Shown in pieces: positions 964 to 19,713 of a stretch of DNA of 64,000 bases (positions are counted from its first letter, which is position 1; each line of letters opens with the position of its first letter). Both the position numbers and the translations under genes were made by a program. The DNA is from Candidatus Woesearchaeota archaeon. Its GTDB lineage: Archaea > Nanobdellota > Nanobdellia > Pacearchaeales > GW2011-AR1. The notes below the pieces were generated by a model that ran no database searches, had not been told where the DNA came from, and saw only the letters and a program-made list of their open reading frames with translations. The stretch is from positions 1,991 through 65,990 of the forward strand of contig CAZUKQ010000003.1 of the NCBI GenBank assembly GCA_964621025.1, written 5' to 3'.

Positions 964-1009
964 CGATTTTCAAAGAAAAAGAATGTTATAAATTTATCTA
1001 AGTTTTGGA

Positions 1010-2083
1010 TTAGGATATACTTTCTATTCTACCACAATACTGGCCAATATCATTAAAATCATACTTTACTAATCTGACTACAGAACAACCTTCCCTAATA
1101 CTAGAACCATAAGCCACATCAGAACAATAGCCTGCAGCCACATTTCTGTTATTCCAGCTATTAATCTGCTGAGCACCAAATAATGTAACCCCTATAACCC
1201 ATGCAGCAGGATTCGCCACAGTTCTTGCAGTAACTGTTGTTGTCTTAACAGGATTAGCAATAAAAGAAGCTCCCCAAGCAAGACCTATCGCCGAAATTGT
1301 ATTCTTCCAAACTACAGTACCTTTAGAAGCAGAAACCTGCATAAACAAAACTGCTATCTCTTCATCTTTTCCGATTGGTCTTGCCGTTGCGTTTTCTAAA
1401 CTAATTGTAGAACTATTAGTAATATTTTCATGATTCACAACAACATCAACACTTAAATCTTCTTCAACGCTCATCATAGCATTTCCTCCAGCTAAATAAT
1501 CATAATATGAAACGTTTTGACCAGGAGCCTTATGGGTTCTCATATATTGGTCCACATTCAAATCTTTCAAACTAACATTCAAGTCTGCAAGAGAATTTTC
1601 ATCGAATGCAAGTCTTGAACAAATAACACATGAAGAATCTATTCCACTAGCAGCAAACTGATTAGCCAACGAAGGAGAGAATAAAGTAATTTTTCCTTCA
1701 CCCATCATTTGCCAACAAGAAACCATTTCCTGAGCAATATATCTGTTTACATCATTTAACTCTGCAACTTCAACATTCTGAATTTCTTTAGAATTATTAT
1801 ACTCTTCCGCACAAGTTCCTTTTCCAAACCATTTATCTCCTCGGATGCATATTTTATTTGTTTTACATTTCAAAGGCACAGCAGAACTCACTTCCTTCAC
1901 ATTAACCATACTAGCCAAGGTTCCTCTGAGAATCACTGACTCTTTGCAGATAGAATCATCTACCTGTCCTTTCCAATTAACCTGTGTATAAAAGAAGATG
2001 ATTATTCCAACGCTAAAAATCAAGATGATTATTCCAATAAGTGTTCCGCTAGTTATATCTCCCCTTTTATTAGCCATTATCAT
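1010..2083 (-). CDS. Class III signal peptide (pilin-like) protein with a larger 357-aa body
   Basis: N-terminus is MIMANKRGDITSGTLIGIIILIFSVGIIIFFY. The Cys-containing ectodomain has no motif I recognise. Confidence 0.6.
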   Translation of the reverse strand: MIMANKRGDITSGTLIGIIILIFSVGIIIFFYTQVNWKGQVDDSICKESVILRGTLASMVNVKEVSSAVPLKCKTNKICIRGDKWFGKGTCAEEYNNSKEIQNVEVAELNDVNRYIAQEMVSCWQMMGEGKITLFSPSLANQFAASGIDSSCVICSRLAFDENSLADLNVSLKDLNVDQYMRTHKAPGQNVSYYDYLAGGNAMMSVEEDLSVDVVVNHENITNSSTISLENATARPIGKDEEIAVLFMQVSASKGTVVWKNTISAIGLAWGASFIANPVKTTTVTARTVANPAAWVIGVTLFGAQQINSWNNRNVAAGYCSDVAYGSSIREGCSVVRLVKYDFNDIGQYCGRIESIS

Positions 2084-2115
2084 CTAAAACTAAACAAAAT
2101 AATCTTTTTAATTCT

Positions 2116-2226
2116 TTACATCGCCAATAATCTTTTGAATAGAAGGTAAACACCAGTACAAACTAAAACAAATACTGCCAACCAAAGCAAAAGTCGAACA
2201 AATTCTTCCATTCCTCTTTTTTTCAT
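2116..2226 (-). CDS. Mini pilin-like protein, 36 aa (below ORF-track cutoff)
   Basis: Hand translation gives MKKRGMEEFVRLLLWLAVFVLVCTGVYLLFKRLLAM*. It shows the same K-R-G plus hydrophobic helix pattern. A TATA-like AAATATATAAAG lies ~30 nt upstream. Confidence 0.45.
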   Translation of the reverse strand: MKKRGMEEFVRLLLWLAVFVLVCTGVYLLFKRLLAM

Positions 2227-2268
2227 AAAAAATAAAATTAAAAGAACTTAATAAAACTTTATATATTT

Positions 2269-2823
2269 CTAAGAAGTGACTAATTTATCTCTACAAATAT
2301 CTGCTCCAACAACTCTTGCACCATCTAAATTTTTCAACAATAGGGACAAATCCGCAAATGGATAAACTTCTTGGATTTTCTTGAATGTTGCCGAGTTTAC
2401 ATCCAGAGTATTGCTATTTAGACTTATAACCCCTGAACTAAATGAGCCTACTGTCTCATCAACCGGCCACCAATTGACATCTCTCTGAACTTCTGTAGCA
2501 TCTAGCTTTAAACCTGAATAAAGATTTCCTCTACAATTAGTTTGTTTTATTAAATCCTGACACAAATTGATATCTCCTTGTTTTGTAAGATAATCTCCCT
2601 TAACATTCCCCACCCTAAATGGACAAAGACTGCTACCAGTTACCGATTCATTCAAACCACTAATTACCTCATCCTCTTGAGGAGTATAACCATATCCTGG
2701 CAAATTTCTAATTTTTGTTAAAATATCTCCCTTAGCAAAGGCAAAGAAAAGCGCACCAATAGTTAGGAGAATTAAAATAATCAGAAGCATCTGCTCATAA
2801 CCAGTCATAGCCCTCTTGTTCAT
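2269..2823 (-). CDS. Class III signal peptide (type IV pilin-like) protein, 184 aa
   Basis: N-terminus is MNKRAMTGYEQMLLIILILLTIGALFFAFA. If cleavage follows K-R-A, Glu falls at +5, as in bacterial type IV pilins. Its ATG overlaps the upstream stop as ATGA. Confidence 0.6.
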   Translation of the reverse strand: MNKRAMTGYEQMLLIILILLTIGALFFAFAKGDILTKIRNLPGYGYTPQEDEVISGLNESVTGSSLCPFRVGNVKGDYLTKQGDINLCQDLIKQTNCRGNLYSGLKLDATEVQRDVNWWPVDETVGSFSSGVISLNSNTLDVNSATFKKIQEVYPFADLSLLLKNLDGARVVGADICRDKLVTS

Positions 2824-2978
2824 TTTCCAAACCTAAAAATATTATTTAGATATTGCATTGCTCCAACACCTTTGTCCTTGAGAATAAACAAACCAATAAT
2901 AACAATTACTAAAACAGCTATGCCTACTATCCACCAAGCAAGTTGATCAAGCTCGAAAGCACCACGTCTCTTTTTCAT
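2820..2978 (-). CDS. Mini pilin-like protein, 52 aa (below ORF-track cutoff)
   Basis: Hand translation gives MKKRRGAFELDQLAWWIVGIAVLVIVIIGLFILKDKGVGAMQYLNNIFRFGK*. The stop TGA overlaps the ATG of the next gene (ATGA at 2820-2823). Confidence 0.5.
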   Translation of the reverse strand: MKKRRGAFELDQLAWWIVGIAVLVIVIIGLFILKDKGVGAMQYLNNIFRFGK

Positions 2979-3053
2979 AAAATTAAAAGCGTTAGGAGAT
3001 TAATAAATGTTATTAGAACAGCAAATTTAAAAGAGCAAAGAACCTGTATTATT

Positions 3054-3578
3054 ATGGCAAAAATAAACGCAGGATTTAGCTCTGGAAAAGTTTCCTCAAA
3101 TTCTCAAGAAGCAGTCGCTCTCTGTAGTTCACAAAGCTTTGGAGAAAAAATTGGAGAAAAAATTTTCTACTCTTTAAGCGAGACTCTCTTCCTTATCGAC
3201 GAGAAAAAACTAGAAGTCTCCGATACAAACAACAAAAAAATAAACAGAGAAGAATTATTGAAGAAATTCCAAAAAATTGATAAAAATTTCAAGACCAAAT
3301 ATTTTGTATTTCAGGATTTAAGGAAGAAAGGATATCTATTGAAAAGTGCTTTGAAATTTGGTGCGGACTTTCGAGTTTACGAGAAAGGTAAAAAAGTTGG
3401 CAAAGACCACTCCAAATGGATTTTATATGCGACAGACGAAAACGCAACACAAAAGTGGCAAGATTTCAGTGCCAAAAACAGAATTGCTCATTCGACAAAA
3501 AAGAAACTTCTTATTGGAGTCGTTGATGAAGAAGGCGATGTTTCCTACTACGAATCTAGCTGGCTGAAACCCCAATAA
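3054..3578 (+). CDS. endA: tRNA-splicing endonuclease (EndA)
   Basis: The C-terminal catalytic-domain motif LKFGADFRVYEKG...HSKWILY and the terminal VSYYESSWLKP match the EndA family. I prefer the ATG at 3054 (MAKINAG) to the track's TTG at 2943, which would overlap the divergent pilin gene. A TATA-like AAATTTAAAAG lies ~25 nt upstream of 3054. Confidence 0.8.
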   Translation: MAKINAGFSSGKVSSNSQEAVALCSSQSFGEKIGEKIFYSLSETLFLIDEKKLEVSDTNNKKINREELLKKFQKIDKNFKTKYFVFQDLRKKGYLLKSALKFGADFRVYEKGKKVGKDHSKWILYATDENATQKWQDFSAKNRIAHSTKKKLLIGVVDEEGDVSYYESSWLKPQ

Positions 3579-3608
3579 ATTTATAATGTGTTCTGTCTTC
3601 TCTAATTA

Positions 3609-4541
3609 ATGATTAACGTAGAAGAAGTAAAAATTCAAATTCTGAAAACCCTAGATATGGTCGGACCAAGTTTACCAATACAAATTGCAAAAACTACGGG
3701 ACTTTCACCAATGTTTGCATCCGCAATTTTATCAGAACTTGTAGGGGCACAGAAAGTAAAAATGAGTAAACTAAAGTATGGTTCCACCCCTTTGTATCTT
3801 ATTCCGGGGCAAGAACAAAGATTGGAAAATTTTGCAGATGAAAATCTGTCTGCTGGAGAAAAAATTGCCTACCATCGACTTAAAGAAGAGAAAATCATCG
3901 ACGACATCAAACAAGAACCAGCAATGAGAGTTGCTCTTAGATCAATAAATGATTTCGCAGTTCCAATAAGATTCCAGGATAAAATAATTTGGAAATATAA
4001 ATTCATAACTAATGAAGAAGCAAAAGATATCTTAGACCAAAAGTTCAATGGCAAAGAAAAACCTGCAATCAAAATAGAAAAAGAACAAGAAAGAGTTGAA
4101 CAAGAACCTGAAGTTAAAGAAGAAATTGTAATTGAAAGACAAAAGGTAAAACTAATTCCCAAAGAGGAAGAAAGCGAAGAACCTGTTGAACCTAAAGCCA
4201 AACCTCCAAAAACTAAAAAGAAGTTTGAAACGGTGAATGAATTTTTAGTAGAGGTAAAATCTTTCCTTGATAAAAAAGATATAGAACTTGTTAAAGAAAT
4301 AGAATCTAAGAAAAAAGATGTAACTGCAATAATAAGAATTAATTCTGACTTAGGAAAAATCTCATTTTTGTTAATTGCTAAAGACAAAAAGAAACTAAAC
4401 TTAACAGATTTAACGATGGCCTACCAAAAGGCAATAACCCACAAGATGCCTTGCTATCTTCTTTCTAGAAGCGAGTCATCTAAGGCTATCGAGGGCTTCC
4501 TTGAGGAACATAAAAATCTGCTAAAATTAGGGCATTTCTAG
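3609..4541 (+). CDS. Hypothetical protein with an N-terminal winged-helix-like domain and a K/E-rich linker
   Basis: 310-aa ORF. The N-terminus ILKTLDMVGPSLPIQIAKTTGLSPMFASAILSELV...GSTPLYLIPGQ looks like an HTH plus wing. The centre is a low-complexity E/K/P linker. I do not recognise the C-terminal ~100 aa. Confidence 0.45.
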   Translation: MINVEEVKIQILKTLDMVGPSLPIQIAKTTGLSPMFASAILSELVGAQKVKMSKLKYGSTPLYLIPGQEQRLENFADENLSAGEKIAYHRLKEEKIIDDIKQEPAMRVALRSINDFAVPIRFQDKIIWKYKFITNEEAKDILDQKFNGKEKPAIKIEKEQERVEQEPEVKEEIVIERQKVKLIPKEEESEEPVEPKAKPPKTKKKFETVNEFLVEVKSFLDKKDIELVKEIESKKKDVTAIIRINSDLGKISFLLIAKDKKKLNLTDLTMAYQKAITHKMPCYLLSRSESSKAIEGFLEEHKNLLKLGHF

Positions 4542-4545
4542 AACA

Positions 4546-4560
4546 ATAAACCTTAAAAAG
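4546..4560 (+). promoter_or_regulatory. BRE/TATA promoter of rps17e
   Basis: TAAACCTTAAAAAG is centred ~26 nt upstream of the ATG at 4581. The same sequence occurs at 57115-57131. Confidence 0.55.
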
Positions 4561-4580
4561 CCAAAAAGAGAGACAATATT

Positions 4581-4787
4581 ATGGGACGAATCAAAACAAC
4601 ATTAGTAAAGAGAACATCCAGAAAACTAGTTGAATCTCTACCTGAATCATTCGCAAAAGACTTCGAGTCTAACAAAAAGTCACTTGGTAACACAACGATG
4701 CCAAGTAAAAGAATGCGAAATATGGTTGCTGGCTATATAACAAGACTTAAGAGAAATAGTCAGAAAATCATCGACGACAAACAATAG
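4581..4787 (+). CDS. rps17e: 30S ribosomal protein S17e (eS17)
   Basis: MGRIKTTLVKRTSRKLVE...FESNKK matches the typical eS17 N-terminus, and the size is right (68 aa). Confidence 0.9.
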   Translation: MGRIKTTLVKRTSRKLVESLPESFAKDFESNKKSLGNTTMPSKRMRNMVAGYITRLKRNSQKIIDDKQ

Positions 4788-4792
4788 TAATA

Positions 4793-5095
4793 ATGGAAAA
4801 AGAACAAGAAAGAACAAAAGAGAATATTGTATTTATTGGTAGCAAACCTTTTATGAGTTATGTAACCGGCGTTGTAATGCAGTTTACAACAAACAAAGCT
4901 TCACAAGTTATAATCAAAGCAAGAGGTAAATTCATTTCTAAATCAGTTGATGTCGCAGAAGTTTCAAAAAACAAATTCTTAAAAGAACTTAATTTAGATG
5001 CTGAATCTATAAAAATTGGAAGTGAAGCTTACGAAAACAAAGAAGGCAAAAAACTTTGCGTTTCAACAATGGAAATAGTTCTTAAAAGAAAATAA
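4793..5095 (+). CDS. albA: Alba DNA/RNA-binding protein
   Basis: NIVFIGSKPFMSYVTGVVMQF...VIIKARGKFISKSVDVAEV matches the Alba/Sac10b core. Size is 100 aa. Confidence 0.9.
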   Translation: MEKEQERTKENIVFIGSKPFMSYVTGVVMQFTTNKASQVIIKARGKFISKSVDVAEVSKNKFLKELNLDAESIKIGSEAYENKEGKKLCVSTMEIVLKRK

Positions 5096-5142
5096 TTCTC
5101 AATCATATAAATCCTTATAAATCTCAAACTTTTTTAGTTAAA

Positions 5143-5496
5143 ATGGTAACATTAGAAACATTTCTTAGAGAAGAAATAGCTAAACAAAATAATCTGTTAC
5201 ATCAACAAAAAATTGTCTTGCAAAATTCAAGATTAGCCTTAGACTGCACACCTTCTCAAAACTTCACTTATGAAATCCAATTACAAAGTTTATGGAGCAG
5301 TGAAGGAGAAGAAGATATAACAACAAAACATAAAGGTGAAATTTTTGAAGCAATAAAAATTGCAGAAGCTGAATACCGAAGAATTAATGAAAGATCAAAC
5401 ATATCTGCAAAGTATAAAGTGAATATAGTTCTTGGAGAAAGAAAATTTGAAGTTCCGAAAGAATACTGGGAAAAGTACACGTTTGAAAACTGCTAA
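5143..5496 (+). CDS. Hypothetical protein, 117 aa
   Basis: Clean ORF with a TATA-like CCTTATAAATC ~25 nt upstream. No recognisable motif. Confidence 0.55.
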   Translation: MVTLETFLREEIAKQNNLLHQQKIVLQNSRLALDCTPSQNFTYEIQLQSLWSSEGEEDITTKHKGEIFEAIKIAEAEYRRINERSNISAKYKVNIVLGERKFEVPKEYWEKYTFENC

Positions 5497-5725
5497 TAAT
5501 TCTAAAACCAATAACCTTAAATAATTAGTTTCTCTAGTATATTCATGTTAAGCCACAACGCTTTATTCGTTCAGAAGAATATTGTAGCTGTGTCTGCGAC
5601 AATTCTAAAGGTCTCCTACTGATTCTATCAGGGCCTTTAGACTTCTTACAAAAAATTTACAGAATATGTCTTTAGGCCCTTATAGTCTTACAAGAAATCT
5701 TTAGAAAACTAAACTGGAGGGCAAA

Positions 5726-5875
5726 ATGGATAAAACAACAGAAACAAGAAAAGAACTTGAGGAACGACTCGACGGAATACCAATGCTATTTCCGTTCGAA
5801 GGCGGAATCGTAGAGTTAGGTCTCCCTCAGGATTATTCACTGATGACAGAAATTTACGCAGTGGCTAGTCAATAA
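5726..5875 (+). CDS. Small hypothetical protein, 49 aa (below ORF-track cutoff)
   Basis: Hand translation gives MDKTTETRKELEERLDGIPMLFPFEGGIVELGLPQDYSLMTEIYAVASQ*. It is preceded by the Shine-Dalgarno-like TGGAGGG 7 nt upstream. Confidence 0.35.
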   Translation: MDKTTETRKELEERLDGIPMLFPFEGGIVELGLPQDYSLMTEIYAVASQ

Positions 5876-5893
5876 TCTTAGTAAAAAATAAAA

Positions 5894-6175
5894 TTATTTT
5901 TTTGTCTTCTTTTGTTTTTTAGAAGACTTTTCCTTTCCCAAAATTTCTAATAAAAAATCTAATTTTTCTTCAATTCTCATGAGTCTTCTATGGTCTTTGA
6001 ATCGATTAATTCCTCTAACAATCAAGAATATCCAGTAGACAATTAAAACAACCCCTATTGCCTGTAAAACAGAAATTAGAGGTGCAGCCTTATCCAACAA
6101 AACAGGAAAACCTTGCGTCCAAAAAGAACTTAACAAATCAGAACTGTTCACTGAAGGAATTAAATCTACGGCCAT
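5894..6175 (-). CDS. Small membrane protein with a basic coiled-coil tail, 93 aa (last gene of the LamG operon)
   Basis: It has one strong TM (VLQAIGVVLIVYWIFLIV) followed by RLMRIEEKLDFLLEIL and a K-rich tail. It overlaps the upstream gene by 1 nt. Confidence 0.6.
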   Translation of the reverse strand: MAVDLIPSVNSSDLLSSFWTQGFPVLLDKAAPLISVLQAIGVVLIVYWIFLIVRGINRFKDHRRLMRIEEKLDFLLEILGKEKSSKKQKKTKK

Positions 6176-7209
6176 TATTTCTTGGTCTGTTTTACAACTT
6201 TCTTAAATTTTTTATGATGTGGCTTAAAATCTCTCCAAGACAATTTGTGTTCCTTACTTATTTTCTTACTAATCTTTTTCTCATGTTTTTGAACATGTTT
6301 TTCAAATCTTTGTTTTTCTTTTTTTTGATGTTTTTCGTCAATCTTGGCATACTTGGCTTCTTCTCTTGATCTTCCTCCAGAATATAAAAACATCTTTTCC
6401 TGTAACAAAGGAATCTGTCTATCAATATCTCTAATCATCTCTGCGAAACTTTTTGTTCTAATTGTATAAGAACTCTCTGAAAGATTTCCTCCCTCAAAAT
6501 ATTGTTTCTGGGTAGCCATAATTAAATTTTTTAAAGATTCTTTTCTAGCCTGTAAATTTGTTATTTTTTTCCTTATTAAATATCTGTAAATACTAGTTTT
6601 GTATATAAAAAAAAGTATAAGTAACGTAGTCAAACTGATTATTATAATTTTCCAGTTATCTAAGAAAAACTTTTGTAAGGAACGAGAGGTACTAGCATAA
6701 AATAAATTCAAAGTAGTATACTCGGATTTAACAGTTATAATTTTTTCATAGGCACTAGTAATTAGGGGATTTACCTTTTCATATCTCTCACTGTTTATCT
6801 CATCTTTAATTTGATCAATGATTACATCTATAGAACTTGTGTTAATGTTTGTATTAACAAAAGACTCGTCATAGAATCTAGTTAGAGCTCCGAGCGCATC
6901 CCTCGAATTGTATGCCTCTATTTTCAAATTAGCAAGTGCTTCGCAATAAGGTAAAACTAAATTAAACTCTCCTGTCCTTCCTTTCTGTTCTAAAAGAATT
7001 TGAGAAAGATAAAGATTATCTGCTTGCTTTAGTGTGTCATTCGCTCTAGCAACAGAGAAATTAGCCGCTTGCAACTCTACAACAGTTTTTGTAGATTCAT
7101 TTAAACAACTAGTAGCCTGGTCTTTAATAGAAGTATTTACAGCCACTGCAAAAGTAAAACTAACACAAAACAAGAAAGTTAAAGCTAACACTAAAATTTT
7201 ATTTTTCAT
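6175..7209 (-). CDS. Secreted helical ectodomain protein with a TM and cytoplasmic coiled-coil/K-rich tail, 344 aa
   Basis: It has a Sec-type signal (MKNKILVLALTFLFCVSFTFA), a TM (WKIIIISLTTLLILFFIY) and a C-terminal K-rich tail. Its ATG overlaps the stop of the giant gene (ATGA at 7206-7209). The architecture mirrors the C-terminal ~400 aa of the giant protein. Confidence 0.65.
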   Translation of the reverse strand: MKNKILVLALTFLFCVSFTFAVAVNTSIKDQATSCLNESTKTVVELQAANFSVARANDTLKQADNLYLSQILLEQKGRTGEFNLVLPYCEALANLKIEAYNSRDALGALTRFYDESFVNTNINTSSIDVIIDQIKDEINSERYEKVNPLITSAYEKIITVKSEYTTLNLFYASTSRSLQKFFLDNWKIIIISLTTLLILFFIYKTSIYRYLIRKKITNLQARKESLKNLIMATQKQYFEGGNLSESSYTIRTKSFAEMIRDIDRQIPLLQEKMFLYSGGRSREEAKYAKIDEKHQKKEKQRFEKHVQKHEKKISKKISKEHKLSWRDFKPHHKKFKKVVKQTKK

Positions 7210-10200
7210 CTTTTTTCACCTCTGAAACTCTTTTCCTTAGGAAGGTTTTTGCCCTTAATAAAACTTTTGGCTTCCATGAATAACAACTCTTCCTCAACTT
7301 TTGCCAATCTAGTGTTGTAAATCTTGAACATATTTTCATAAACTCTCGTCTCCATTTCACCCCTCTTCAAATATTTATCTTGAACTTGTCTCATTAAATC
7401 AATTAATCTTTCCTTCTCCTGACTTAGGGCTATTCTCTTTCCTGAAACTTTCATTAAGTTAGCAATTCTAGTCTGAACCCTTATTTTCTCATTAATTGTC
7501 TTTGCAAGTTTATCCTCATACTGACTCATCGATTCTCTATATTCTTCCATAGACATTTTATTCTTCTCAAATGTCTCGCTTTGTATTACTCTCATTAATT
7601 GTAGTAATAACCTTTCTTCTTGATCTAACATTTTCAACTTCTTTTTATTTAGACTTAATTTTGTAGCAACAGTTCCCCCGAAGCTTAACAATAGAACTAC
7701 TAAAAAGATTCCTGTAGTTTCTTTAGGATTTTCTTTAATTTCGTATAATAGGTTGAATTCTCCTTTTGTTTCCAAAGCATAAGTTAGTTGAGCATCTTTC
7801 AAATTCTTGTAGGCAGACAAATAGTCTCCTCTTTTGTAGATTGTTTCAGCGACGTACAATAGCTTCTTAGTTTCTATTGTACTAATTCCTCTCTTCTGTG
7901 CCCAATCTAAACTAGTGTACAATTCATCAATCAAAGCTTTTGATTCATATGCAGCACTATAAATTAAGTTCAACAATTTATAATTGTCTTCAACAGCTAA
8001 GAAGTTTACTTCTTCATAGTTTGATTGCATCAAACTATAATAGCTCTCAACATCTTTCAAATAGAATCCTGAGGCATTCATCTCTTGAATCATTCTTTCA
8101 GAATTATTCAAGTATCCATCAGCAGTTTGTCTTGTTACCTCTACAATATACAATGTAACAAATTTAGTTTCTGTAAATTGTTTCTTCTCAGTTGAACCAT
8201 CAATTGTTCCCTCTAGGTTGAACTTCAATAAATATTTTCCTTGACTAAAGTAAGAAGGTGCTGTAATCTTTACTGTCAAGTTCTTCGAAGATTTTCCTAA
8301 AATCTCTTCGATAACTGTTGGAGTGATAGTTACGTATTCAGAGTTTGTTCCTGTAACAGTTATTGAAATATCTCTCTTCGCACTATCTAATTTATTTTCA
8401 ATGGGTAACTGGAATTCTTGATCTGCTCCCCTCAATAATTCGAATTGTGCTTCAGACTTTTCGAAACTTCCTGCTCCGCTGCCTCCTCCGCCTCCGCCGC
8501 CTCCACCAGACGAAGAACCTCCAGTTAATGGAGCAGAACAATCAGGATCATAACCTGCGGTGTTACTCAGATAAGAACAACCAAGAGGACAAATTCCGTC
8601 TGAAACAGAATAACAAACAAAACTAATAGTAACTTCATCAGTTAGAATATTTCCTACCGCATGATTAATTGGTAAAAGGTTTTCGGTAGAATTTTCGGAA
8701 CCTCCTGCATAGATATTAAGAATGTACTCTATTCCACCAAGTGTAATTGACTCCATATTTGATTTGGTTAAGTTTAAAGTTAAATTCAAAAATTGTTCTG
8801 AAGTATCATTCAAAATTGGATAAACTGCTGATGAATTTCCTTCTAATAGGGAAGAAATTGCTGAAGGAATTGACCAATTGAAAAAGACTTCATATGCAAG
8901 ATTAGAATCTGAAGGGTCGGAAATGTTTGTAGGTTCAACTAAATTTTTTACGAAGGCACTGAGATTTATAACTTGATTTGTTAAATTTATTCTGTAATAG
9001 TTTGAAGAGGGCAATTCTATACGGCTGTCTAAATAAGCACCCGGAGTTACTACAACTCTTGCCTGAACAACTTCTGTTATGGTTCCATCAACACTATCGC
9101 TAATATTTGCAGTTACATTGAACGCAGGGGTTTCATCTAAAACGGAAGATGTTTGAGGAAATCCAGATTTAACTTCAACAGTTTGATTTTCCCCAGCAGA
9201 TAAAGTTATTGTGTTTGGTAAACTGTTGTCATTTATTTTGAATCCTGAAATACTTGATTCATCGGCGATTCCAGTTCCTTGAAAATAACCTAATCCAAAG
9301 TCCGGGTAGAGAATGTTTGCCTTGTTATAACCAATAGTATACTTTATTACACAACCGTCCGAGTAGTTTTCATCTCCAGTATTTGTGATTATTAAATTTC
9401 CTATAGACTTGTCCTCGTTGAATCCGCCAATAGTTCCCAAGTCGTTTGTTGAAATATTCCAAGAACAATCATAGTAAGAAGAGATTTGATAATCCGAAGA
9501 AAAATTTATTCCTCCTTCGGTGTCATTTGCCCAAACTCTATAAGTTATAGTGCCTTCGTATTCTGGTAATGTCAAAACATAACTAAAATTAGAACCTACA
9601 GTTTCCATGATTAAATTTTCTTGCCAATCAGAGTCTGTTGAATTTTTCCATTGTAATAAAACAGTTTGTAAATTTGAATCTATGTCTGTTACATTAACAG
9701 AAATTGTAACGTTTGTCAATGGGTCGATTGTGTCGTTGTCATAAGTATTTTGTAAAACATTTTGTATGTTTGGTTTTGTGTTTCCAATTATTGTTCTTGT
9801 TTCTGTGAAATTTATATTTCCTGCTCTGTCTTGCACATAAGCCTTCACAGGATATGAAACTCCTTCTGCTAGGTTTGCGAAAGTTATTGTTAGATATTTT
9901 GTAGATTGATTTGAGTAGAGGGCTACTATTTCTGCTTGAGTTAATGCTCTGTTGAAGATCATTACATCGTCGATAGAACCATTGAAATAAGACCAACCAG
10001 TTCCATAACCCATACCTAAATATACATTACTATAGTTAATTTGAGAAGTTGTGTTTGTAATATTTCCAAGAACACCATCTAAATAAATCATATTATGTGT
10101 TCCATTGTTTATACCTACAACATGGTGCCAAATATTATCAGCAACATAATTATAAGTTGCAGGATTGGTATTATAACCATTTATAGAAAATAGTACTTTA

Positions 10201-13200
10201 TTAGGACTAGACCATAATCTATAACCATTTGCTGTTCCTACATCTGTATAACCCGCAAGTAAATCATAAGGACCATTCGTTATTTTTTTTATCCAAACCG
10301 AAACAGAAACATTATTAGTTATATTTAATCCGGCGGGAGAGTCCCTAGAGATATAATCTCCTGCACCATCGAAAGCCATCGCATCACCCATTCTACCATT
10401 CACATCAACACGAGCATCACCTTGCTTTGTACCTGAATTTCCACGTCCACTTGAATCAATTACAGTTGAGCCTGAAATAGAATCAAAAGTCCACCAACCA
10501 ACTAAAGAATTATTCCAATCTAAGAATAGAGAAACATGATCTTGGTCAGAAGCAGTCATATTTATTGTTGCTGAAGATTTAAACTCTCCTTCTTCAGGAG
10601 TTGGACTTAAAAATTCTATCGACGCATTAGTTCTATCAATAATAGTTTCATAGGTTTCAGTCACAACTTGATTATCGCTCCAATCAAAAATCTTCCAGAA
10701 CCATTTCCATATTCCCTCAGCAATAGACTGAACAAACCCAGCATTTGTGCTTGTTGTATTTCTTGCAAATGTTTGAGTTTGTTCTTGTGAGTTGGTTAGT
10801 TTTGCATCACCTTGCTTTGTTCCGTTGTTTCCGTTTCCAGATTTATCTATTGCTATAGTAGAAGAACCTTCGAAATCGTACCAAGCTACTAATCCTGTTG
10901 AGTTTAAATTAGGGTTTGATAAAATCCCTGAGTTATATACCTCAGTTATCTCTGAAGCAGATAAAGAACGATTGTATATTCTAACTTCATCTATTGAGCC
11001 GTTGAATTTATTAGACCCTCCGCCAATCCATGCAGGATATGCACTATTATTTTGAATTGAAAAATCTGGAAAAGTTGCATTTCCTTTTGAAACACCATCA
11101 ACATAAATCTTAAACACTTTTGAAGTATTATCCCAAGTGGTAGTAAGATAATACCAGGTATTTGGAGAAATAGTTTCAGAAGATGTTACTGTTGGCCATG
11201 TAATTCCGTTATATAAATAACCTCTAGGCTTGTTGAATGATTCAATTATCATTGAATAATGTAAACTAGAACTTTTTGTAAAAATTTCGTGCCTAACACC
11301 ATCTACTGCAGCTGCTTTAATCCAAGCAGAAATGCTCACATCTCCAACTAAATTTAGAGAACTACTGGTTGGAATAACAACAGAATCTCCATTTCCGTCT
11401 AATTCTAACCAAGAGTTATTTAGGTTTGTCATATTCAATGTAGCATTTTTTATTCCAGTATCTTGGTCTGAAAAGTTAATTGTGAAATTTAATGTAGCAT
11501 TGTTTGTATAGGTTCCATTTATTGGCAAAGACACATTTGTAACAGGTAAATTAATTTCATCTAATCCTGTAATGGTACTATTAGAAGTTGTAAAAAAGAA
11601 AGGCGAATAGAAACTCGGTGCATCTGAATTCAATTTTATTTGTGGACAAACGTTTGTAGTTGAAGTTAAAATTGGAACTGAGGCACTATTTCCGCTCACA
11701 GTCTGGTAATCTGTATAATTCCAGTTTGCTCTTCCTTTAAGATAAAGTTCTTTTATCTCCATAGCTGAAAGAGAACGATTGAAAATCATTACTTCGTCGA
11801 TTGAACCGTTCCAGAAATCTGTTGCCGCATTAAGAGTATAGGAACCTATTCTTCCAACAACTGAAGAGGCATTTAGAACACCTATAATCCCTGTACCTGA
11901 ACAAGTTAGAGAACCATCAGTGTAGATTCTCCAAGTAGCTAAATCATATGTAACCGAAGCCAAATGCCAATTTCCATCTGCGATTAAAGTATTCGAACAA
12001 ACAACTGCTTGTGCAGCACTAGTCTGATTTTTTGCATAAACTCTTAGACCTGAAGTATTTTGATACATAAAATACGTTTCCGAACCAACGCCCGAAATAA
12101 TTCCAGGAGTAGCACTCAACGTTGCTCCTGTTTTTCTTACCCAGGTAGAATAAGTTAAACCATTTCTAGTTTGATTTGAGATAACTGCTGAACTAGCAAT
12201 GTAATCTCCATTTCCATCAAAAACTCCAGAATTGTTATAAACTCCTTCGCCAGTTGCAACGTTTCCGTATCCAGTTCCATCTTTTCCATTTCCAGAAAAA
12301 TCATTCAACCCTGTATTGTCTAAAGGCCAATAACCAACTAAACCCTCATTTAAACTATCTGAAGTATTAATTGAAGAATAGAAAGTATTTCCGTAAGACT
12401 TTCCATGATTTATTCCGAAATCATCTTGTGCCGATAGAGTGTTAAAAGAATAATAAGAAACTAAACCACTTGTCGATAGATTATATTCTGCTCTGTTCAA
12501 ATTATAAATGTTTGAAATTTCAGTAGAGTTCAAAGATTTATTGAAAATCATAACTTCATCGATGGAACCGTTGAAATATTTTTGAGAAGTATAATACCCT
12601 ATTTGAGGTGCGTTAGTGTTATTAGCTAAAACTCCTTTTGCTGTGAATACTCCAGAAGCAACACCATTTACATACAGCCTAGTGTTATTAGCTGAAACAG
12701 ATGAATCATACGTAAAACCTACATAGCTCCATTGGTTTAAAGGAATCGAATTACTTGAATAAAAATGTCCAAATCCTGAAGCTGAATAATTATACAGATA
12801 CAAAGCAGTATTTGTTCCATTAAAATGAAAATAATACTCGTTTGACTTCATTAGTAATCCTTGTTTATCCCCCGTCATCAGAGGATAAATCCATGTAAAA
12901 ACAGAAAGTTTCTCTGCATTGTTTCCGATATTTGCTGGAAGAGTTATATAATCTCCATTTCCATTAAAGTTAGCAAAAGCAGTTGAGTTCTCAGTCTTAT
13001 AACCTAAATCTTTATTCCACTGACCAACTCTCGCCTGAATATTCGTATTCAAATTATTTTCTTTTGTTAAATTTAATTCCAACAAATCATAACCAGAATT
13101 TATTGTTGATTGCTTTCCTTCAATTGTTCCTGAATCTTTAAATCTCCTTGATTGATTATTATAGATGTCTATGATTTCTTGTTGTGTTAAAGCTTTGTCA

Positions 13201-14636
13201 AAAATCATCACTTCATCTATTGAACCATTGAAATATTTTGAACCTGCATCCCAACCCAAGAATGTTTTAAAGGGGGAAACAGCCCCAATATCTGCAGTTA
13301 CAGAAAGATTTCCTTCAAATGTTCCGTTGATATAAAGTTTGCTCCCATTAACCGAATCTTTAGTAACCGTAACGTAATAGTACCTGTCTGGTTGAATAGA
13401 ACTACTGGATGTCAATAAATCAAATAAACCGGCATTATAATATCTAAATACTAATTTTCCTGCGGAAGATACCTTTAAAGAAGACCTACTGGAAGAAGAC
13501 CCGAAGATTATTAAATCTGTTCCAGATGAAACAGGTTTAACCCAGGCAGTCCAAGTAAAGTTATTAACTAAATTTAAATTTGAGCCAGCATCTACATAAT
13601 CCCCGTTTCCATCTAAAATTAAAGCATCATCGTAAATTCCAGAAATGTTAGAAGAAAAGGCATTGCCGACATAGAGTCCGTCGTTGTTTAAATTAGATAA
13701 ATCATAAGCTTTATTTGGCGCTGATACATTTGAAGCGTTTGCCATATCGCTGTCAAAGTTCCAATAACCAACTAAATTAGGGTAAGGAGAATTTTGGGGA
13801 TAAGAAGCATCGACTTGCGTCGTCGCATTTCCATAAGCAGTTCCATGATTATTATTTCCTGAAGAGTCTAAATAATTACTGGGATGATTATCAAAGTTCC
13901 ATTCTCCGACTAAACCAGATTTTGAGCCGTTGTAGGTGCTTCTGTTTAATGCGTAGATGTTTGCTATTTCCGTTGGACTTAATGCTCTGTTGAAGAGCAT
14001 TACATCATCTATTGAACCATTGAAATATCTATTTTCTGACTCTCTTTCTCTACCAATAAATAGGGGCGCCTGGGAATTTGTGATAGAAACATCTGAAAAT
14101 GTTCCATCTGCTACACCATTTTTATAAATTGCTACATTCGTTCCGTTATGAACAACAGAAACATGAATCCACTCCCCACTATTATAATCTGTTAATGTTG
14201 ACTCTTTCCATGCACCAGAAAAATAACTCAATTTGCCTGCAGTATTTCGACCGATATTCAATGAAAAACCAGTAAAGGGGGTAGCATTTGCTATAATTGC
14301 GACTATAGAATTTGAAGAGGATAATGTTCCTGTTGAAGTTGTTTTTATCCAAGCAGAAATGGTTCTTGCATTTGTAGATTCAAAACTAGTAGTTGAAGAA
14401 ATGTTTCTTATATAATCTCCACTTCCATCAAGCACTAATTCTCTCTCGCTAGTTGCATTTATTTCTAAATGGATATTGTCTGTTTCATTTAGCGTGTTTG
14501 TTAAAATGCTTTGTTGACTAGAGTTAAAACTCTGACTGAAAACTCCTAACATTAAACTGTTTATTGAGGGAACAAAAAAAACTAGAGCAAATACTAAAAT
14601 CAAAAAAGTTCCAAGAAAAAAATTCTGGGCTTTCAT
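7206..14636 (-). CDS. Giant surface protein (2476 aa) with six LamG/concanavalin-A-like lectin domains, a C-terminal TM and a cytoplasmic coiled coil
   Basis: It has an N-terminal signal/TM. Six units each run from DG(S/N/A)GDY(I/V) to the hallmark (Y/K)FNGSID(D/E)V(M/R)(I/L)(F/Y)N(R/K)(A/S)L(S/T)..EI..(I/L)Y. The coding cores sit near 14005, 13220, 12560, 11795, 10990 and 9970. There are dozens of N-x-S/T sequons, a GGSSSGGGGGGGGSGAGS linker, a TM (GIFLVVLLLSFGGTVA) and a ~200-aa heptad-rich tail. Confidence 0.85.
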   Translation of the reverse strand: MKAQNFFLGTFLILVFALVFFVPSINSLMLGVFSQSFNSSQQSILTNTLNETDNIHLEINATSERELVLDGSGDYIRNISSTTSFESTNARTISAWIKTTSTGTLSSSNSIVAIIANATPFTGFSLNIGRNTAGKLSYFSGAWKESTLTDYNSGEWIHVSVVHNGTNVAIYKNGVADGTFSDVSITNSQAPLFIGRERESENRYFNGSIDDVMLFNRALSPTEIANIYALNRSTYNGSKSGLVGEWNFDNHPSNYLDSSGNNNHGTAYGNATTQVDASYPQNSPYPNLVGYWNFDSDMANASNVSAPNKAYDLSNLNNDGLYVGNAFSSNISGIYDDALILDGNGDYVDAGSNLNLVNNFTWTAWVKPVSSGTDLIIFGSSSSRSSLKVSSAGKLVFRYYNAGLFDLLTSSSSIQPDRYYYVTVTKDSVNGSKLYINGTFEGNLSVTADIGAVSPFKTFLGWDAGSKYFNGSIDEVMIFDKALTQQEIIDIYNNQSRRFKDSGTIEGKQSTINSGYDLLELNLTKENNLNTNIQARVGQWNKDLGYKTENSTAFANFNGNGDYITLPANIGNNAEKLSVFTWIYPLMTGDKQGLLMKSNEYYFHFNGTNTALYLYNYSASGFGHFYSSNSIPLNQWSYVGFTYDSSVSANNTRLYVNGVASGVFTAKGVLANNTNAPQIGYYTSQKYFNGSIDEVMIFNKSLNSTEISNIYNLNRAEYNLSTSGLVSYYSFNTLSAQDDFGINHGKSYGNTFYSSINTSDSLNEGLVGYWPLDNTGLNDFSGNGKDGTGYGNVATGEGVYNNSGVFDGNGDYIASSAVISNQTRNGLTYSTWVRKTGATLSATPGIISGVGSETYFMYQNTSGLRVYAKNQTSAAQAVVCSNTLIADGNWHLASVTYDLATWRIYTDGSLTCSGTGIIGVLNASSVVGRIGSYTLNAATDFWNGSIDEVMIFNRSLSAMEIKELYLKGRANWNYTDYQTVSGNSASVPILTSTTNVCPQIKLNSDAPSFYSPFFFTTSNSTITGLDEINLPVTNVSLPINGTYTNNATLNFTINFSDQDTGIKNATLNMTNLNNSWLELDGNGDSVVIPTSSSLNLVGDVSISAWIKAAAVDGVRHEIFTKSSSLHYSMIIESFNKPRGYLYNGITWPTVTSSETISPNTWYYLTTTWDNTSKVFKIYVDGVSKGNATFPDFSIQNNSAYPAWIGGGSNKFNGSIDEVRIYNRSLSASEITEVYNSGILSNPNLNSTGLVAWYDFEGSSTIAIDKSGNGNNGTKQGDAKLTNSQEQTQTFARNTTSTNAGFVQSIAEGIWKWFWKIFDWSDNQVVTETYETIIDRTNASIEFLSPTPEEGEFKSSATINMTASDQDHVSLFLDWNNSLVGWWTFDSISGSTVIDSSGRGNSGTKQGDARVDVNGRMGDAMAFDGAGDYISRDSPAGLNITNNVSVSVWIKKITNGPYDLLAGYTDVGTANGYRLWSSPNKVLFSINGYNTNPATYNYVADNIWHHVVGINNGTHNMIYLDGVLGNITNTTSQINYSNVYLGMGYGTGWSYFNGSIDDVMIFNRALTQAEIVALYSNQSTKYLTITFANLAEGVSYPVKAYVQDRAGNINFTETRTIIGNTKPNIQNVLQNTYDNDTIDPLTNVTISVNVTDIDSNLQTVLLQWKNSTDSDWQENLIMETVGSNFSYVLTLPEYEGTITYRVWANDTEGGINFSSDYQISSYYDCSWNISTNDLGTIGGFNEDKSIGNLIITNTGDENYSDGCVIKYTIGYNKANILYPDFGLGYFQGTGIADESSISGFKINDNSLPNTITLSAGENQTVEVKSGFPQTSSVLDETPAFNVTANISDSVDGTITEVVQARVVVTPGAYLDSRIELPSSNYYRINLTNQVINLSAFVKNLVEPTNISDPSDSNLAYEVFFNWSIPSAISSLLEGNSSAVYPILNDTSEQFLNLTLNLTKSNMESITLGGIEYILNIYAGGSENSTENLLPINHAVGNILTDEVTISFVCYSVSDGICPLGCSYLSNTAGYDPDCSAPLTGGSSSGGGGGGGGGSGAGSFEKSEAQFELLRGADQEFQLPIENKLDSAKRDISITVTGTNSEYVTITPTVIEEILGKSSKNLTVKITAPSYFSQGKYLLKFNLEGTIDGSTEKKQFTETKFVTLYIVEVTRQTADGYLNNSERMIQEMNASGFYLKDVESYYSLMQSNYEEVNFLAVEDNYKLLNLIYSAAYESKALIDELYTSLDWAQKRGISTIETKKLLYVAETIYKRGDYLSAYKNLKDAQLTYALETKGEFNLLYEIKENPKETTGIFLVVLLLSFGGTVATKLSLNKKKLKMLDQEERLLLQLMRVIQSETFEKNKMSMEEYRESMSQYEDKLAKTINEKIRVQTRIANLMKVSGKRIALSQEKERLIDLMRQVQDKYLKRGEMETRVYENMFKIYNTRLAKVEEELLFMEAKSFIKGKNLPKEKSFRGEKR

Positions 14637-14767
14637 TCTTTCATCTCCAATAATTCTTTAATTACTAAATTTTTTACAAGTTCTGCTTTTTTCACACCAA
14701 GTCCATCTGCCTTTTTTTGTAAGATCTGATCTAATTTATCAGACACTGAAATTTTTATTTCGCTCAT
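14633..14767 (-). CDS. Ribbon-helix-helix (CopG/Arc-like) protein, 44 aa (below ORF-track cutoff)
   Basis: Hand translation gives MSEIKISVSDKLDQILQKKADGLGVKKAELVKNLVIKELLEMKE*, which fits a beta-strand followed by two helices. Its TGA overlaps the ATG of the giant LamG gene (ATGA at 14633-14636). Confidence 0.55.
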   Translation of the reverse strand: MSEIKISVSDKLDQILQKKADGLGVKKAELVKNLVIKELLEMKE

Positions 14768-14779: not shown

Positions 14780-14795
14780 CTCACTAAATGGTGAG
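14780..14795. promoter_or_regulatory. Inverted repeat CTCAC-N6-GTGAG between the putative TATA and the RHH start; candidate operator
   Basis: Perfect 5-bp arms with a 6-nt spacer lie 13-28 nt upstream of the RHH ATG. They sit downstream of the A/T block 14800-14810 (minus-sense GATTTTATTTC). The repeat is short, so this is weak evidence. Confidence 0.25.
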
Positions 14796-14960
14796 TAGAG
14801 AAATAAAATCACCTCTTATTTCCCATACTAAATTCACCACTTAATCACTAATTAAGAACCCCCTCATATTTAAAGCTTTCTAAATAAGTGTAAAAATCAA
14901 CAAAAATAAAACAAAGAACTCACCAATCGATCCAAATCAATTCTAAAAAATAAGAAATAA

Positions 14961-15776
14961 CTAAGTCAAAATATAATCGCCGGTTAGAGTTTTTCCGTTA
15001 ATAACAAACCCTTTTCCCTTTACAATATTAAATTCAACGATTCTTCTATCAATATCTGTACCTCTCATCTTAACAACTTCAACTGCTCTCTTTCTAGTTC
15101 CACCCTTGTAGAACACATTATACATCGCAATAATTCCGTCGGATAAGAATGAAACTGCTTCACCTGCCTCGACGAAATTTGTACCAACGTGAGATGGAGA
15201 TGAAACTTCTCTAATCAAGAAAGAAGTCATATCGTGACCTTCTAAATATCTAAATAACTGTTCCATATAAATTCTGAATCTAGATTCTTCACCAGAGAAC
15301 GCAGAAGCAATGGAAGATAACGAATCAATTAATACAATATCTGGATGGAAGTCCATTGGAATTAAAACTGGCTGAACATCAATCAACAATTCTTTTTTCG
15401 CCTCACTTAAAAGTGCTTCAACAGAACGCGCAATATCTAAAGCATTAAATCTTTTTACCATCAATAGATTTTTCTTTATGTAAGTATCTGGATCAGCACC
15501 AAAAGATCTCAAGTGTCCAATTAATCTCTGCTCTGGCTCTTCAAAACTCATGTACAAAACTCTCTTACCTCTTTCACAAGCATTTTTTAATACTTGTAAA
15601 CAGAAAATTGTCTTACCACTGCCCGGACCACCTTCAACTAAAACTGCACTTCCTTGAGGAATACCGTCGCCAATTAGACTATCAAATCCATTTACGTAAG
15701 TTTTAATTCTTTCATCTTTATATTCCACAACCTTCTTAGAAGAACTAGACTTAGCACTAACATCACCTTTTTTCAT
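14961..15776 (-). CDS. KaiC/RecA-superfamily ATPase (single KaiC-like domain)
   Basis: It has a Walker A (VEGGPGSGKTIFCLQ), a Walker B-like DIVLIDSLS, and KMRGT near the C-terminus, as in COG0467-type KaiC/FlaH-like proteins. A palindromic TATA (TTTATAAA) lies ~25 nt upstream. Confidence 0.75.
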   Translation of the reverse strand: MKKGDVSAKSSSSKKVVEYKDERIKTYVNGFDSLIGDGIPQGSAVLVEGGPGSGKTIFCLQVLKNACERGKRVLYMSFEEPEQRLIGHLRSFGADPDTYIKKNLLMVKRFNALDIARSVEALLSEAKKELLIDVQPVLIPMDFHPDIVLIDSLSSIASAFSGEESRFRIYMEQLFRYLEGHDMTSFLIREVSSPSHVGTNFVEAGEAVSFLSDGIIAMYNVFYKGGTRKRAVEVVKMRGTDIDRRIVEFNIVKGKGFVINGKTLTGDYILT

Positions 15777-18894: not shown

Positions 18895-19713
18895 TTATAA
18901 AAATAACGAAAACAAGAAATTAAAGAAAAAGTCATAAAAATAGGCATACAATAAAAATGCAATCATGAAAGCTGGCACGAAAGGTAAACCTTCCTTAATC
19001 AATACCTCTTTCTTTTTTCTTTTTATTAATTCTATCTCTTTCTTAGACAAACCATCGAAATTAGCCTTGAAAACTCGGTTTCCTATTTTCAAATCACTGA
19101 CCAACCAGTCACCTTCTCTCAAAAGTTCACTTTTAACTTTTCTATACATTGCAACTTTTTCTAAGGCCTTAGCATAAACAAATAACAAGGAAAATGCTAA
19201 AACAAAAATAGCTACTATCAAAAATAAAGAATTAAAGAAACCACCAATAGCAAAAACAAAAGCCAAAAGTAAATTATATTTCAATTTCAGTTTTTTTGAT
19301 TCTTTAACAACTTCTTTTTTCATTTTCTTGAAATGAATTATGCCCAAAATTGCCGTATAAGACAGTCCATAAACAGAACCAGCTAAAAATAAGCAGAAGA
19401 TGAAAAAACCTAGATTGAGAAAAGTTAAATTGAAAGTCGCAGCTACAAAAAAAGGCGTCATTGCAAATAAAAGTTTAGCGTCTCCACCTGCAAAAAATCT
19501 ACAATAATAAAGTATATTTGAAAGAGCAAAGAAAACTAAAATAAAAATAAACACCAAAAAGATTTGCTCCGACGTCTTAGCAGAGAAAATCAAATAAACG
19601 CTTCCGGAAACTAGAAGAAACAAGTTCAACCAGTTATCAACCTCTCTTCGTTTAACATCTTGAGCAAAAGCAATCGCCAAACCTGCAAAAAAAAGCCAAA
19701 AAAGGAAGTTCAT
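18895..19713 (-). CDS. Prepilin/preflagellin peptidase (A24 family; PibD/FlaK/EppA-like)
   Basis: Both catalytic aspartate motifs are present: AQDVKRREVDN (D-x-K/R-x-R-x-I/V-P/D type) and FAGGDAKLL (G-x-G-D-x-K-L). It is polytopic and ends with LPFVPAF. Confidence 0.8.
   Translation of the reverse strand: MNFLFWLFFAGLAIAFAQDVKRREVDNWLNLFLLVSGSVYLIFSAKTSEQIFLVFIFILVFFALSNILYYCRFFAGGDAKLLFAMTPFFVAATFNLTFLNLGFFIFCLFLAGSVYGLSYTAILGIIHFKKMKKEVVKESKKLKLKYNLLLAFVFAIGGFFNSLFLIVAIFVLAFSLLFVYAKALEKVAMYRKVKSELLREGDWLVSDLKIGNRVFKANFDGLSKKEIELIKRKKKEVLIKEGLPFVPAFMIAFLLYAYFYDFFFNFLFSLFL

Follow-up and report, generated by a model that had tools for sequence, protein, structure and literature searches.

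A giant LamG surface protein with a variable head and a conserved membrane base, encoded near a KaiC-like ATPase in a DPANN archaeon

Background

Which parts of a giant surface protein are kept while its outer domains are exchanged, and what does a very small protein of DNA-binding type do in front of its gene? Both questions are raised by a chain of four genes in a 64-kb stretch of contig CAZUKQ010000003.1 from a Candidatus Woesearchaeota archaeon; the whole of this stretch is called the window. The chain codes for a 44-amino-acid (44-aa) ribbon-helix-helix (RHH)-like protein, a giant protein of 2476 aa with six LamG units, and two smaller membrane proteins, ORF3 and ORF4 (ORF, open reading frame). 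An earlier annotation, referred to here as the original prediction, had described it as an operon for an adhesin and its membrane partners.

Attachment to other cells is the presumed way of life of DPANN archaea, and little is understood of how they hold on to their hosts and sense them. Their LamG-bearing and giant surface proteins have been predicted to mediate host recognition or contact (PMC10266531), and DPANN-specific "dark matter" secreted proteins encoded next to S-layer-like genes have been listed (PMC6393860). Most of the candidate surface proteins are lineage-specific and hard to compare. In the literature that we searched, LamG-bearing and giant surface proteins of this group are on record, but a cluster that combines a membrane base with a KaiC-like ATPase is nowhere described.

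The present locus exposes a conserved, unannotated layer under the variable heads: a family of membrane bases (1,633 representative clusters), a paralogue of it that forms part of the giants, and the ATPase found alongside. We propose, as a reading that is on balance probable, that the locus encodes an autoregulated, head-swappable glycosylated adhesin, seated on a heteromeric membrane base that is linked to the KaiC-like ATPase.

Results

Four genes in one chain

As read from the list of ORFs and the sequence, the four genes lie as follows.

14633-14767, minus strand: RHH-like ORF of 44 aa, whose stop codon overlaps the start codon of the giant (ATGA)
7206-14636, minus strand: ORF of the giant surface protein, 2476 aa
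6175-7209, minus strand: ORF3, 344 aa
5894-6175, minus strand: ORF4, 93 aa

The chain and its stop/start overlaps are found in the sequence as originally described: ATGA at 14633-14636 (44-aa ORF and giant), ATGA at 7206-7209 (giant and ORF3) and a single nucleotide (nt) at 6175 (ORF3 and ORF4). The neighbourhood was mapped with phmmer in 41 related loci, designated below by L numbers, where the homologue of the giant is called the big protein. In thirteen of these loci, big gene and ORF3 overlap by exactly the same 4 nt (ATGA). By this arrangement the four chained genes look like one operon, as had been claimed.

A variable head on a conserved base

The giant has the predicted architecture of a type-I membrane surface glycoprotein. 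From its N-terminus on, a signal peptide precedes six LamG units and a conserved stalk, which are followed by a glycine hinge, a beta-sandwich, a helical domain, a transmembrane segment (TM) and a cytoplasmic tail. The boundaries of the LamG units were taken from a hidden Markov model (HMM) built from the giant's own six units, and the TM from a hydropathy scan.

9891-14459, minus strand: variable head
13929-14459, minus strand: LamG unit, aa 60-236
13137-13643, minus strand: LamG unit, aa 332-500
12480-12995, minus strand: LamG unit, aa 548-719
11718-12248, minus strand: LamG unit, aa 797-973
10911-11429, minus strand: LamG unit, aa 1070-1242
9891-10400, minus strand: LamG unit, aa 1413-1582
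8475-8522, minus strand: poly-Gly/Ser hinge, aa 2039-2054, dividing head and stalk from the conserved base
7503-8138, minus strand: segment homologous to ORF3, aa 2167-2378, with helical ectodomain, TM and first cytoplasmic Q..F...(M/I)S..EY motif
7650-7718, minus strand: TM, aa 2307-2329, the sole internal one

Judged by comparison with its relatives, the conserved part of this protein is the membrane base and not the LamG head, a point that the original prediction missed. Between the window and the fully syntenic locus L034, identity amounts to 88% for the RHH-like protein, 87% for the KaiC-like ATPase and 85% for MinD; it is 70% for the base of the giant, 66% for ORF3 and 40% for the membrane-proximal stalk. 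The LamG head of the window has no counterpart in L034, despite the 88% identity of the RHH-like proteins. The head domains recognized by Pfam differ accordingly from locus to locus.

Window: six LamG
L040: four LamG
L034: no LamG, two Big_13
L018: one LamG
L011: DUF2341
L029: Ig_2

The variation of LamG copy number that had been anticipated is thus seen among relatives, with six, four or no units. As a conserved base lies beneath such variable heads, the heads appear to be swappable while the anchoring machinery stays constant. The glycine hinge, by its position, marks the likely joint between the variable and the constant part; in ten other big homologues a Gly/Ser run is located about 420-435 aa before the C-terminus.

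Other properties of the giant agree for the most part with what had been read from it originally. Six stretches match the Pfam family Laminin_G_3 (PF13385), with E 1.2e-138 and a score of 457.6 bits (cut-off 27.6), and each unit is closed by the motif FNGSID(D/E)V..(F/Y)N(R/K)(A/S)L, at aa 205, 469, 688, 942, 1211 and 1551, in positions that match the earlier ones. The "dozens" of N-glycosylation sequons number 91 (N-X-S/T), about twice the 46.8 +/- 6.2 expected from shuffled sequences and about 7 standard deviations above it. All of them fall in the ectodomain and none in the tail, which supports the topology. The poly-Gly hinge and the single TM could both be located. The cytoplasmic tail measures 147 aa after the TM, less than the ~200 aa first estimated. 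Nor are the DNA blocks encoding the six LamG cores near-identical, as had been stated: they share 64-91% identity over 45 nt, and the longest exact repeat within the giant gene is 24 nt, so that they would make poor substrates for homologous recombination, a role that had been suggested for them.

Several loci show further large surface-protein genes. In L016 a second big LamG protein of 2533 aa with the same base is encoded at 3453-11054, downstream of the KaiC gene and with its own winged helix-turn-helix (wHTH) gene ahead, so that a single genome can have a pair of giants around the same ORF3-KaiC core. L040 has three further large genes at positions 1-8755, upstream of KaiC (more than 1995 aa, 637 aa, and 625 aa with a HYR domain), which suggests that surface-protein genes cluster around the module. 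In the same locus another LamG-containing gene comes after the giant, where ORF3 would be. The same locus can also differ between samples. Of L037 (8967-16535) and L038 (7022-14590), one has an intact giant of 2522 aa, and in the other it is split into 1831 and 621 aa. A similar pair of samples differs in the membrane partners: ORF3 and ORF4 are separate in L034 (14348-15732) and fused into 364 aa in L036 (5558-6652). Both differences could be strain variation or assembly error.

The base is shared with ORF3

In ORF3, a signal peptide or anchor is combined with a helical ectodomain, in which two cysteines are conserved, a TM (aa 185-207) and a cytoplasmic coiled coil that carries the motif KTQK.YF..G.ISE..Y......AE.IRDIDRQIPLL. 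A word-indexed search returned 84 homologues, and an exhaustive one 1,633 representative clusters. Common to the family are a signal sequence, a helical ectodomain with two near-invariant cysteines, one TM and the cytoplasmic motif, and by its signature (helical ectodomain, single TM, Q..(Y)F...(I/M)S...Y) ORF3 is a full-length member. The motif occurs twice in the tail of the giant and once in ORF3.

BLASTP of the giant C-terminus against ORF3 yielded nothing significant. Profile-profile comparison by hhalign of 19 big-protein C-termini with the ORF3 family gave a probability of 98.6% (E 1.1e-15, 211 columns), and the match covers the helical ectodomain, the TM and the first cytoplasmic motif. 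By this match, the likeness between ORF3 and the base of the giant is true paralogy. It had been predicted that the C-terminal module of the giant is repeated in both downstream proteins; this holds for the 344-aa ORF3, and is not supported for the 93-aa ORF4, for which hhalign detected no relation to either of the two larger proteins (probabilities of 5% and 2%).

In at least five mutually distant representatives (P0206, P0207, P0216, P0223 and P0226) the big protein and ORF3 are fused into a single chain, and P0197 contains the fusion of ORF3 and the big protein in reverse order. By the classic argument from gene fusion, the two proteins would act together. Fusions in at least five distinct representative clusters, together with the paralogy, favour the hetero-oligomeric membrane base that had been suggested.

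ORF4 is a single-pass membrane protein with a Lys-rich tail, and its homologues come after ORF3 in L006, L008 and L034. The two-TM protein of distant lineages ("small2") is absent from the window and unrelated to ORF4, ORF3 or the base. Profile searches, PDB sequences included, found no Pfam, NCBIfam or PDB relative of ORF3, and neither NCBIfam nor PADLOC has a family for ORF3, ORF4, the RHH-like protein or the base. The AlphaFold2 (AF2) model of ORF3 is all-helical (mean predicted local distance difference test, pLDDT, 87.8), and Foldseek matched it to PDB entries only through generic long helices (TM-score <=0.22). A resemblance of the cytoplasmic motif to SHOCT, noticed by eye, was dropped, as no Pfam hit appeared even at E 10.

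A KaiC-like ATPase accompanies the base

Upstream of the chain, and outside the coordinates of the original prediction, lies one more gene.

14961-15776, minus strand: single-domain KaiC-like ATPase, 271 aa (Pfam PF06745, 149.8 bits against a cut-off of 26.6), with a T-rich tract after the gene

From synteny, this gene is to be counted as part of the conserved neighbourhood. An orthologue (E 1e-85 to 1e-156) is present near ORF3 or the big gene in every locus with enough flanking sequence, in L004 at a distance of 4 kb. About 20 loci have the order big gene, ORF3, small membrane protein, KaiC; in L011, L034, L040 and the window itself, KaiC precedes the big gene instead of following it. Fourteen orthologues conserve the Walker A motif GGPGSGKT and MSFEE. 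A near-invariant insert of ~25 aa, RFNALDIARSVEALLSEAKKELLI, and a conserved C-terminal G.Y.LT are shared by the window protein and the orthologues from L003 to L040, and both could be partner-binding sites.

Better-known members of this superfamily do not account for the gene. Identity with ArlH was rejected (58.4 bits against an NCBIfam cut-off of 215, no archaellum genes nearby), and so was a circadian KaiC, the clock type having two domains and ~500 aa, while the alignment of this single-domain protein with KaiC is confined to the second domain. An archaellum or type IV pilus, brought to mind by the ATPase and by a prepilin peptidase gene 4 kb away, was discarded as well, as neither ArlI, ArlJ nor a pilin is encoded in the vicinity and the score for ArlH is too low.

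Two loci with the full cluster, L031 and L032, come from metagenome-assembled genomes (MAGs) labelled "uncultured Methanosarcinales archaeon"; either the module reaches beyond DPANN archaea or these contigs are mis-binned.

The 44-aa protein and the region upstream of it

The 44-aa protein belongs to a family of 17 homologue clusters with 69-100% identity, in which 20 of 44 columns are invariant. Its gene stands between KaiC and the big gene in L034-36 and in L040-41, and L040 retains the ATGA overlap; conservation in relatives, which the original prediction needed, is therefore found in equal position in both related lineages examined. Sub-threshold matches to RHH_1 occur in 11 of the 17 family members (best E 0.002), and 8 of the 17 match RepB-RCR_reg, which we take to be another RHH-type family. 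In the AF2 model of the monomer (pLDDT 85.5), residues 1-7 are extended and residues 8-23 and 27-43 form helices; the strand of an RHH protein forms only in the dimer. The top Foldseek matches of this model are CopG, MazE6, PutA-RHH, Arc and ParG, with TM-scores of 0.6-0.8. We call the protein RHH-like, as the modelled fold is consistent with this identity, if weakly.

A small DNA-binding gene upstream of the big gene recurs, to judge from the predicted proteins, and is not always of RHH type. L031 has two tandem RHH-like ORFs in this position, and L011, L016 and L018 have wHTH proteins of 66-72 aa. In L037-39 a 69%-identical RHH homologue overlaps by 4 nt with the gene of a 138-aa nuclease-like protein, followed by an MNT-HEPN pair and then by the giant. 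The 138-aa protein (L037, 7299-7715) has a PD-(D/E)xK-like N-terminal half (PDF...GVELE) and, at its C-terminus, a second RHH-like segment, KRITLSIDAQLYDKFKKY; it had no match in Pfam, PDB or PADLOC. Pairs of a wHTH-nucleotidyltransferase (MNT) and a HEPN protein are encoded directly upstream of the big gene in L014 (226-1189), L017 (3756-4837) and L037 (7832-8964), which represent three separate lineages. This is reminiscent of the "MNT-HEPN in housekeeping context" that has been noted for DPANN archaea (PMC6393860).

Between the KaiC gene and the 44-aa ORF, the following features were read from the sequence.

14867-14874, minus strand: TATA-like box TTTAAATA with purine-rich GAAAGC ahead, putative archaeal promoter
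14845-14849, 14834-14838, 14809-14813, 14790-14794 (inverted) and 14781-14785, minus strand: RGTGA boxes between the TATA-like box and the start codon
14772-14808, minus strand: imperfect palindrome or hairpin enclosing CTCACC-N4-(A/G)GTGAG, directly upstream of the RHH start codon

The TATA-like box, which aligns with TTTATAAATA in L034 and L040 and is also conserved when L037 is added to the alignment, is the putative archaeal promoter of the operon, and the cluster of RGTGA boxes at 14781-14849 its putative operator. This stretch of 69 nt contains five boxes; the entire window of 64 kb has 143. The first two of the five are spaced by 11 nt, and the core positions of the boxes do not vary between the window and L034, L040 and L037. 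The inverted repeat reported at 14780-14795 is present, as CTCAC-N6-GTGAG, within a larger repeat whose 11-nt arms (14772-14782/14798-14808) are 91% complementary. In L034 the counterpart of the inner palindrome is a perfect 16-bp palindrome, CTCACCAATTGGTGAG. An RNA fold with two hairpins is predicted in three lineages. The z-score is -1.4 in the window; the other two lineages, L034 and L040, account for the values -3.5 and -2.2.

Discussion

A surface device with exchangeable heads

These results are consistent with a self-contained operon by which a DPANN archaeon would build a cell-surface recognition device. The giant would be exported by the Sec pathway, heavily N-glycosylated and held in the membrane by its one C-terminal TM. 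Its distal LamG head, of lectin type, is the likely binding part, possibly for a host cell or for glycans, and would be freely exchanged between lineages. The base (beta-sandwich, helical ectodomain, TM and cytoplasmic helices) may pair with ORF3, its headless paralogue, and the small single-pass ORF4 probably joins the two, giving rise to a hetero-oligomeric membrane foot. The conserved 4-nt stop/start overlap of giant and ORF3 would link the synthesis of both, and the KaiC-like ATPase is likely to make contact with the foot at its cytoplasmic tails. The 44-aa protein most likely binds the GTGA repeats and the palindrome before its own start codon, so that the operon would be autoregulated.

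Several observations weigh against this model. Over 35 of the 39 positions of the RHH_1 profile (PF01402, CopG family of the Met_repress clan), the 44-aa protein scores 16.0 bits (E 0.011), short of the cut-off at 20.5; all Foldseek E-values of its model are near 1, and a profile search of PDB sequences with the RHH alignment found nothing. The modelled fold is consistent, if weakly, with the RHH identity claimed originally, which falls short at the profile cut-off. The upstream repeats contain GGTGA, which is also an anti-16S (Shine-Dalgarno) match, and the upstream region folds into conserved RNA hairpins; for both reasons it may act at the RNA level. A 193-nt spacer with a T-tract and a TATA-like box separates the KaiC gene from the operon, so that the ATPase is linked to it by position and not by co-transcription. 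L003, L004, L025 and L027 comprise ORF3, a small protein and KaiC without an adjacent big gene, which implies a role of the base without an adjacent giant. ORF4 is limited to close relatives, its place elsewhere being taken by the unrelated two-TM protein, and the ORF3 model is without a match among solved structures, which leaves the mechanism unanchored.

Comparison with known systems

The giant is comparable to the giant proteins of other DPANN archaea, such as the nanohaloarchaeal "SPEARE", in being very large and Sec-exported, with outer lectin- or Ig-type repeats, a membrane anchor and a cytoplasmic end, and also in its strain-specific content, predicted role in host recognition and adjoining ATPase gene (PMC10266531). 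The nanohaloarchaeal giants have a fused VirB4/TraG-like ATPase domain and a VirB4-like neighbour, whereas the tail of the present giant is a 147-aa helical segment and the neighbour a single-domain KaiC-like ATPase. Pfam matched no ATPase family in the giant or in its last 464 aa, so it does not qualify as a SPEARE protein. An ORF3-type paralogous base and an RHH gene are not described for SPEARE giants.

With the CopG, Arc and MetJ repressors, which include plasmid copy-number repressors and type II antitoxins, the 44-aa protein shares its length (~45 aa), and its best profile and fold matches lie among them; its modelled monomer, an extended N-terminus followed by two helices, is compatible with their strand-helix-helix fold. 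As in autoregulated RHH operons, its gene comes first and has repeats and a palindrome in its own upstream region. It differs in that the coupled downstream gene encodes a 2476-aa surface protein instead of a replication protein or toxin, in its sub-threshold profile score, and in that its DNA binding is predicted.

The SlaA/SlaB unit of Sulfolobales also comprises two genes, one for a large outer protein that is glycosylated, the other for a smaller helical partner anchored in the membrane, and the giant and ORF3 resemble them in this layout, a likeness of architecture and not of directly compared sequences. Here both proteins are anchored in the membrane, they share a homologous base and conserved cytoplasmic tails, and the outer part is domain-shuffled between relatives. 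The archaellum proteins ArlX and ArlH, a single-pass coiled-coil membrane protein and a KaiC-like ATPase, offer another parallel, as ORF3 likewise has a single TM and a cytoplasmic coiled coil and is encoded beside a single-domain KaiC-like ATPase with a weak ArlH hit. It is a distant one: the ATPase reaches 58 bits against the ArlH cut-off of 215, ArlI, ArlJ and archaellin are not encoded nearby, and the ectodomain of ORF3 is sizeable.

Alternative explanations

The big protein might instead be the main cell-envelope glycoprotein of S-layer type, with ORF3 as its membrane stalk partner in the manner of SlaA and SlaB. The cluster occurs once per locus, in a housekeeping context and in many genomes; the big protein is large, sequon-loaded and membrane-anchored, and its association in one operon with a smaller helical membrane partner recalls slaAB. 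However, a head that is wholly different between relatives whose RHH-like protein and KaiC are 87-90% identical is hard to reconcile with such a role, as are the two big paralogues of L016 and the genomes with ORF3, the small protein and KaiC but no adjacent big gene. Moreover, family and structure searches run for other purposes matched no known S-layer protein family, and a lattice-forming protein is not obviously in need of an ATPase partner. We consider this explanation unlikely. The loci that lack an adjacent big gene count in favour of another one, which we regard as possible though doubtful: that the module is mainly a transmembrane signalling or energy-coupling machine with the KaiC-like ATPase and the ORF3-type base as its core, and with the giant either as an interchangeable sensor input (outside-in) or as an ATP-controlled deployable adhesin (inside-out). 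The ATPase is indeed the most conserved and most constant member of the neighbourhood, the cytoplasmic motif, in its two copies in the giant's tail and one in ORF3, could provide docking sites, and KaiC-like ATPases have been proposed as signalling hubs in archaea, according to the citation of Makarova et al. 2017 in PMC6393860. Neither an output domain nor a phospho-acceptor partner was identified, however, and the KaiC gene of the window is not co-transcribed with the operon, judged by the T-tract and the TATA-like box in the 193-nt spacer.

The two remaining explanations concern the 44-aa gene and the sequence before it. The gene might be of antitoxin type, left over or free-standing, and derive from a toxin-antitoxin or defence islet of the kind often found upstream of the big gene. 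In that case it would be neither a dedicated regulator nor a dedicated partner of the adhesin, and its ATGA overlap would be an incidental result of tight gene packing. Several antitoxins (MazE, VapB, AtaR) are among its closest fold matches, the L037-39 homologue is coupled to a PD-(D/E)xK-like protein with an RHH-like C-terminus and has an MNT-HEPN pair next to it, and such pairs precede the big gene also in L014 and L017; the L037-39 arrangement leaves an antitoxin-type origin open. In the window, on the other hand, no small toxin gene adjoins, the next coupled gene being the giant, and no PADLOC defence model was matched. The 44-aa peptide is as conserved as KaiC and MinD, in the two close lineages examined it has stayed directly ahead of the big gene, also where another head has been acquired, and unrelated small DNA-binding genes fill the equivalent position in other lineages. 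A leftover antitoxin gene seems very unlikely, and a defence-system reading, with no NCBIfam or PADLOC family behind it, was rejected. Finally, the upstream repeats might be a structured 5' leader rather than a DNA operator, with two RNA hairpins, one of them presenting or sequestering a GAGGUGA Shine-Dalgarno-like element, that control translation of the RHH-like protein and the giant. The window, L034 and L040 are all predicted to form the two-hairpin fold (lowest z-score -3.5), and in L040 pairing is retained although the outer arms have another sequence. The conserved AAGAGGT of L037 is placed as a usual ribosome-binding site would be, 8 nt away from the start codon. Against this, the z-score of the window is just -1.4 and no Rfam family was matched; direct GTGA boxes spaced by 11 nt and the perfect 16-bp palindrome of L034 are features typical of protein operators. 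We hold the RNA leader to be rather unlikely and prefer the reading of the repeats as operator of an autoregulated operon.

In a wider and more speculative form, which we put forward only tentatively, the locus would represent an undescribed envelope-spanning apparatus of Woese-, Pace- and Nanoarchaeota-type DPANN archaea. It would consist of the ORF3-type base, a small membrane partner and a dedicated KaiC-like ATPase; interchangeable giant adhesin heads would dock via their paralogous base, intracellular ATP turnover would control or report host attachment, and expression would be governed by a small, dedicated DNA-binding protein. The base, the ATPase and the putative RHH operator are targets that can be tracked across many uncultured lineages.

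Host and other genes of the window

The host is a DPANN archaeon of Woesearchaeota/Pacearchaeota type, with the label "Nanoarchaeota" in several records: homologues of the cluster come from MAGs labelled Woesearchaeota, Pacearchaeota or Nanoarchaeota. The window has a G+C content of ~33% and contains archaeal markers, namely a tRNA-intron endonuclease (2943-3578, plus strand), Alba and an archaeal-type prepilin peptidase (18895-19713). A 96-nt tRNA at 43248-43343 (plus strand; Rfam 55.9 bits) escaped detection by ARAGORN; it probably contains an intron, which fits the presence of the tRNA-intron endonuclease gene. The prepilin peptidase gene adjoins an ORF of 720 aa without a Pfam family (19881-22043, minus strand), and in L034 and L035 its position is occupied by an ORF of 726 aa, likewise without a Pfam family.

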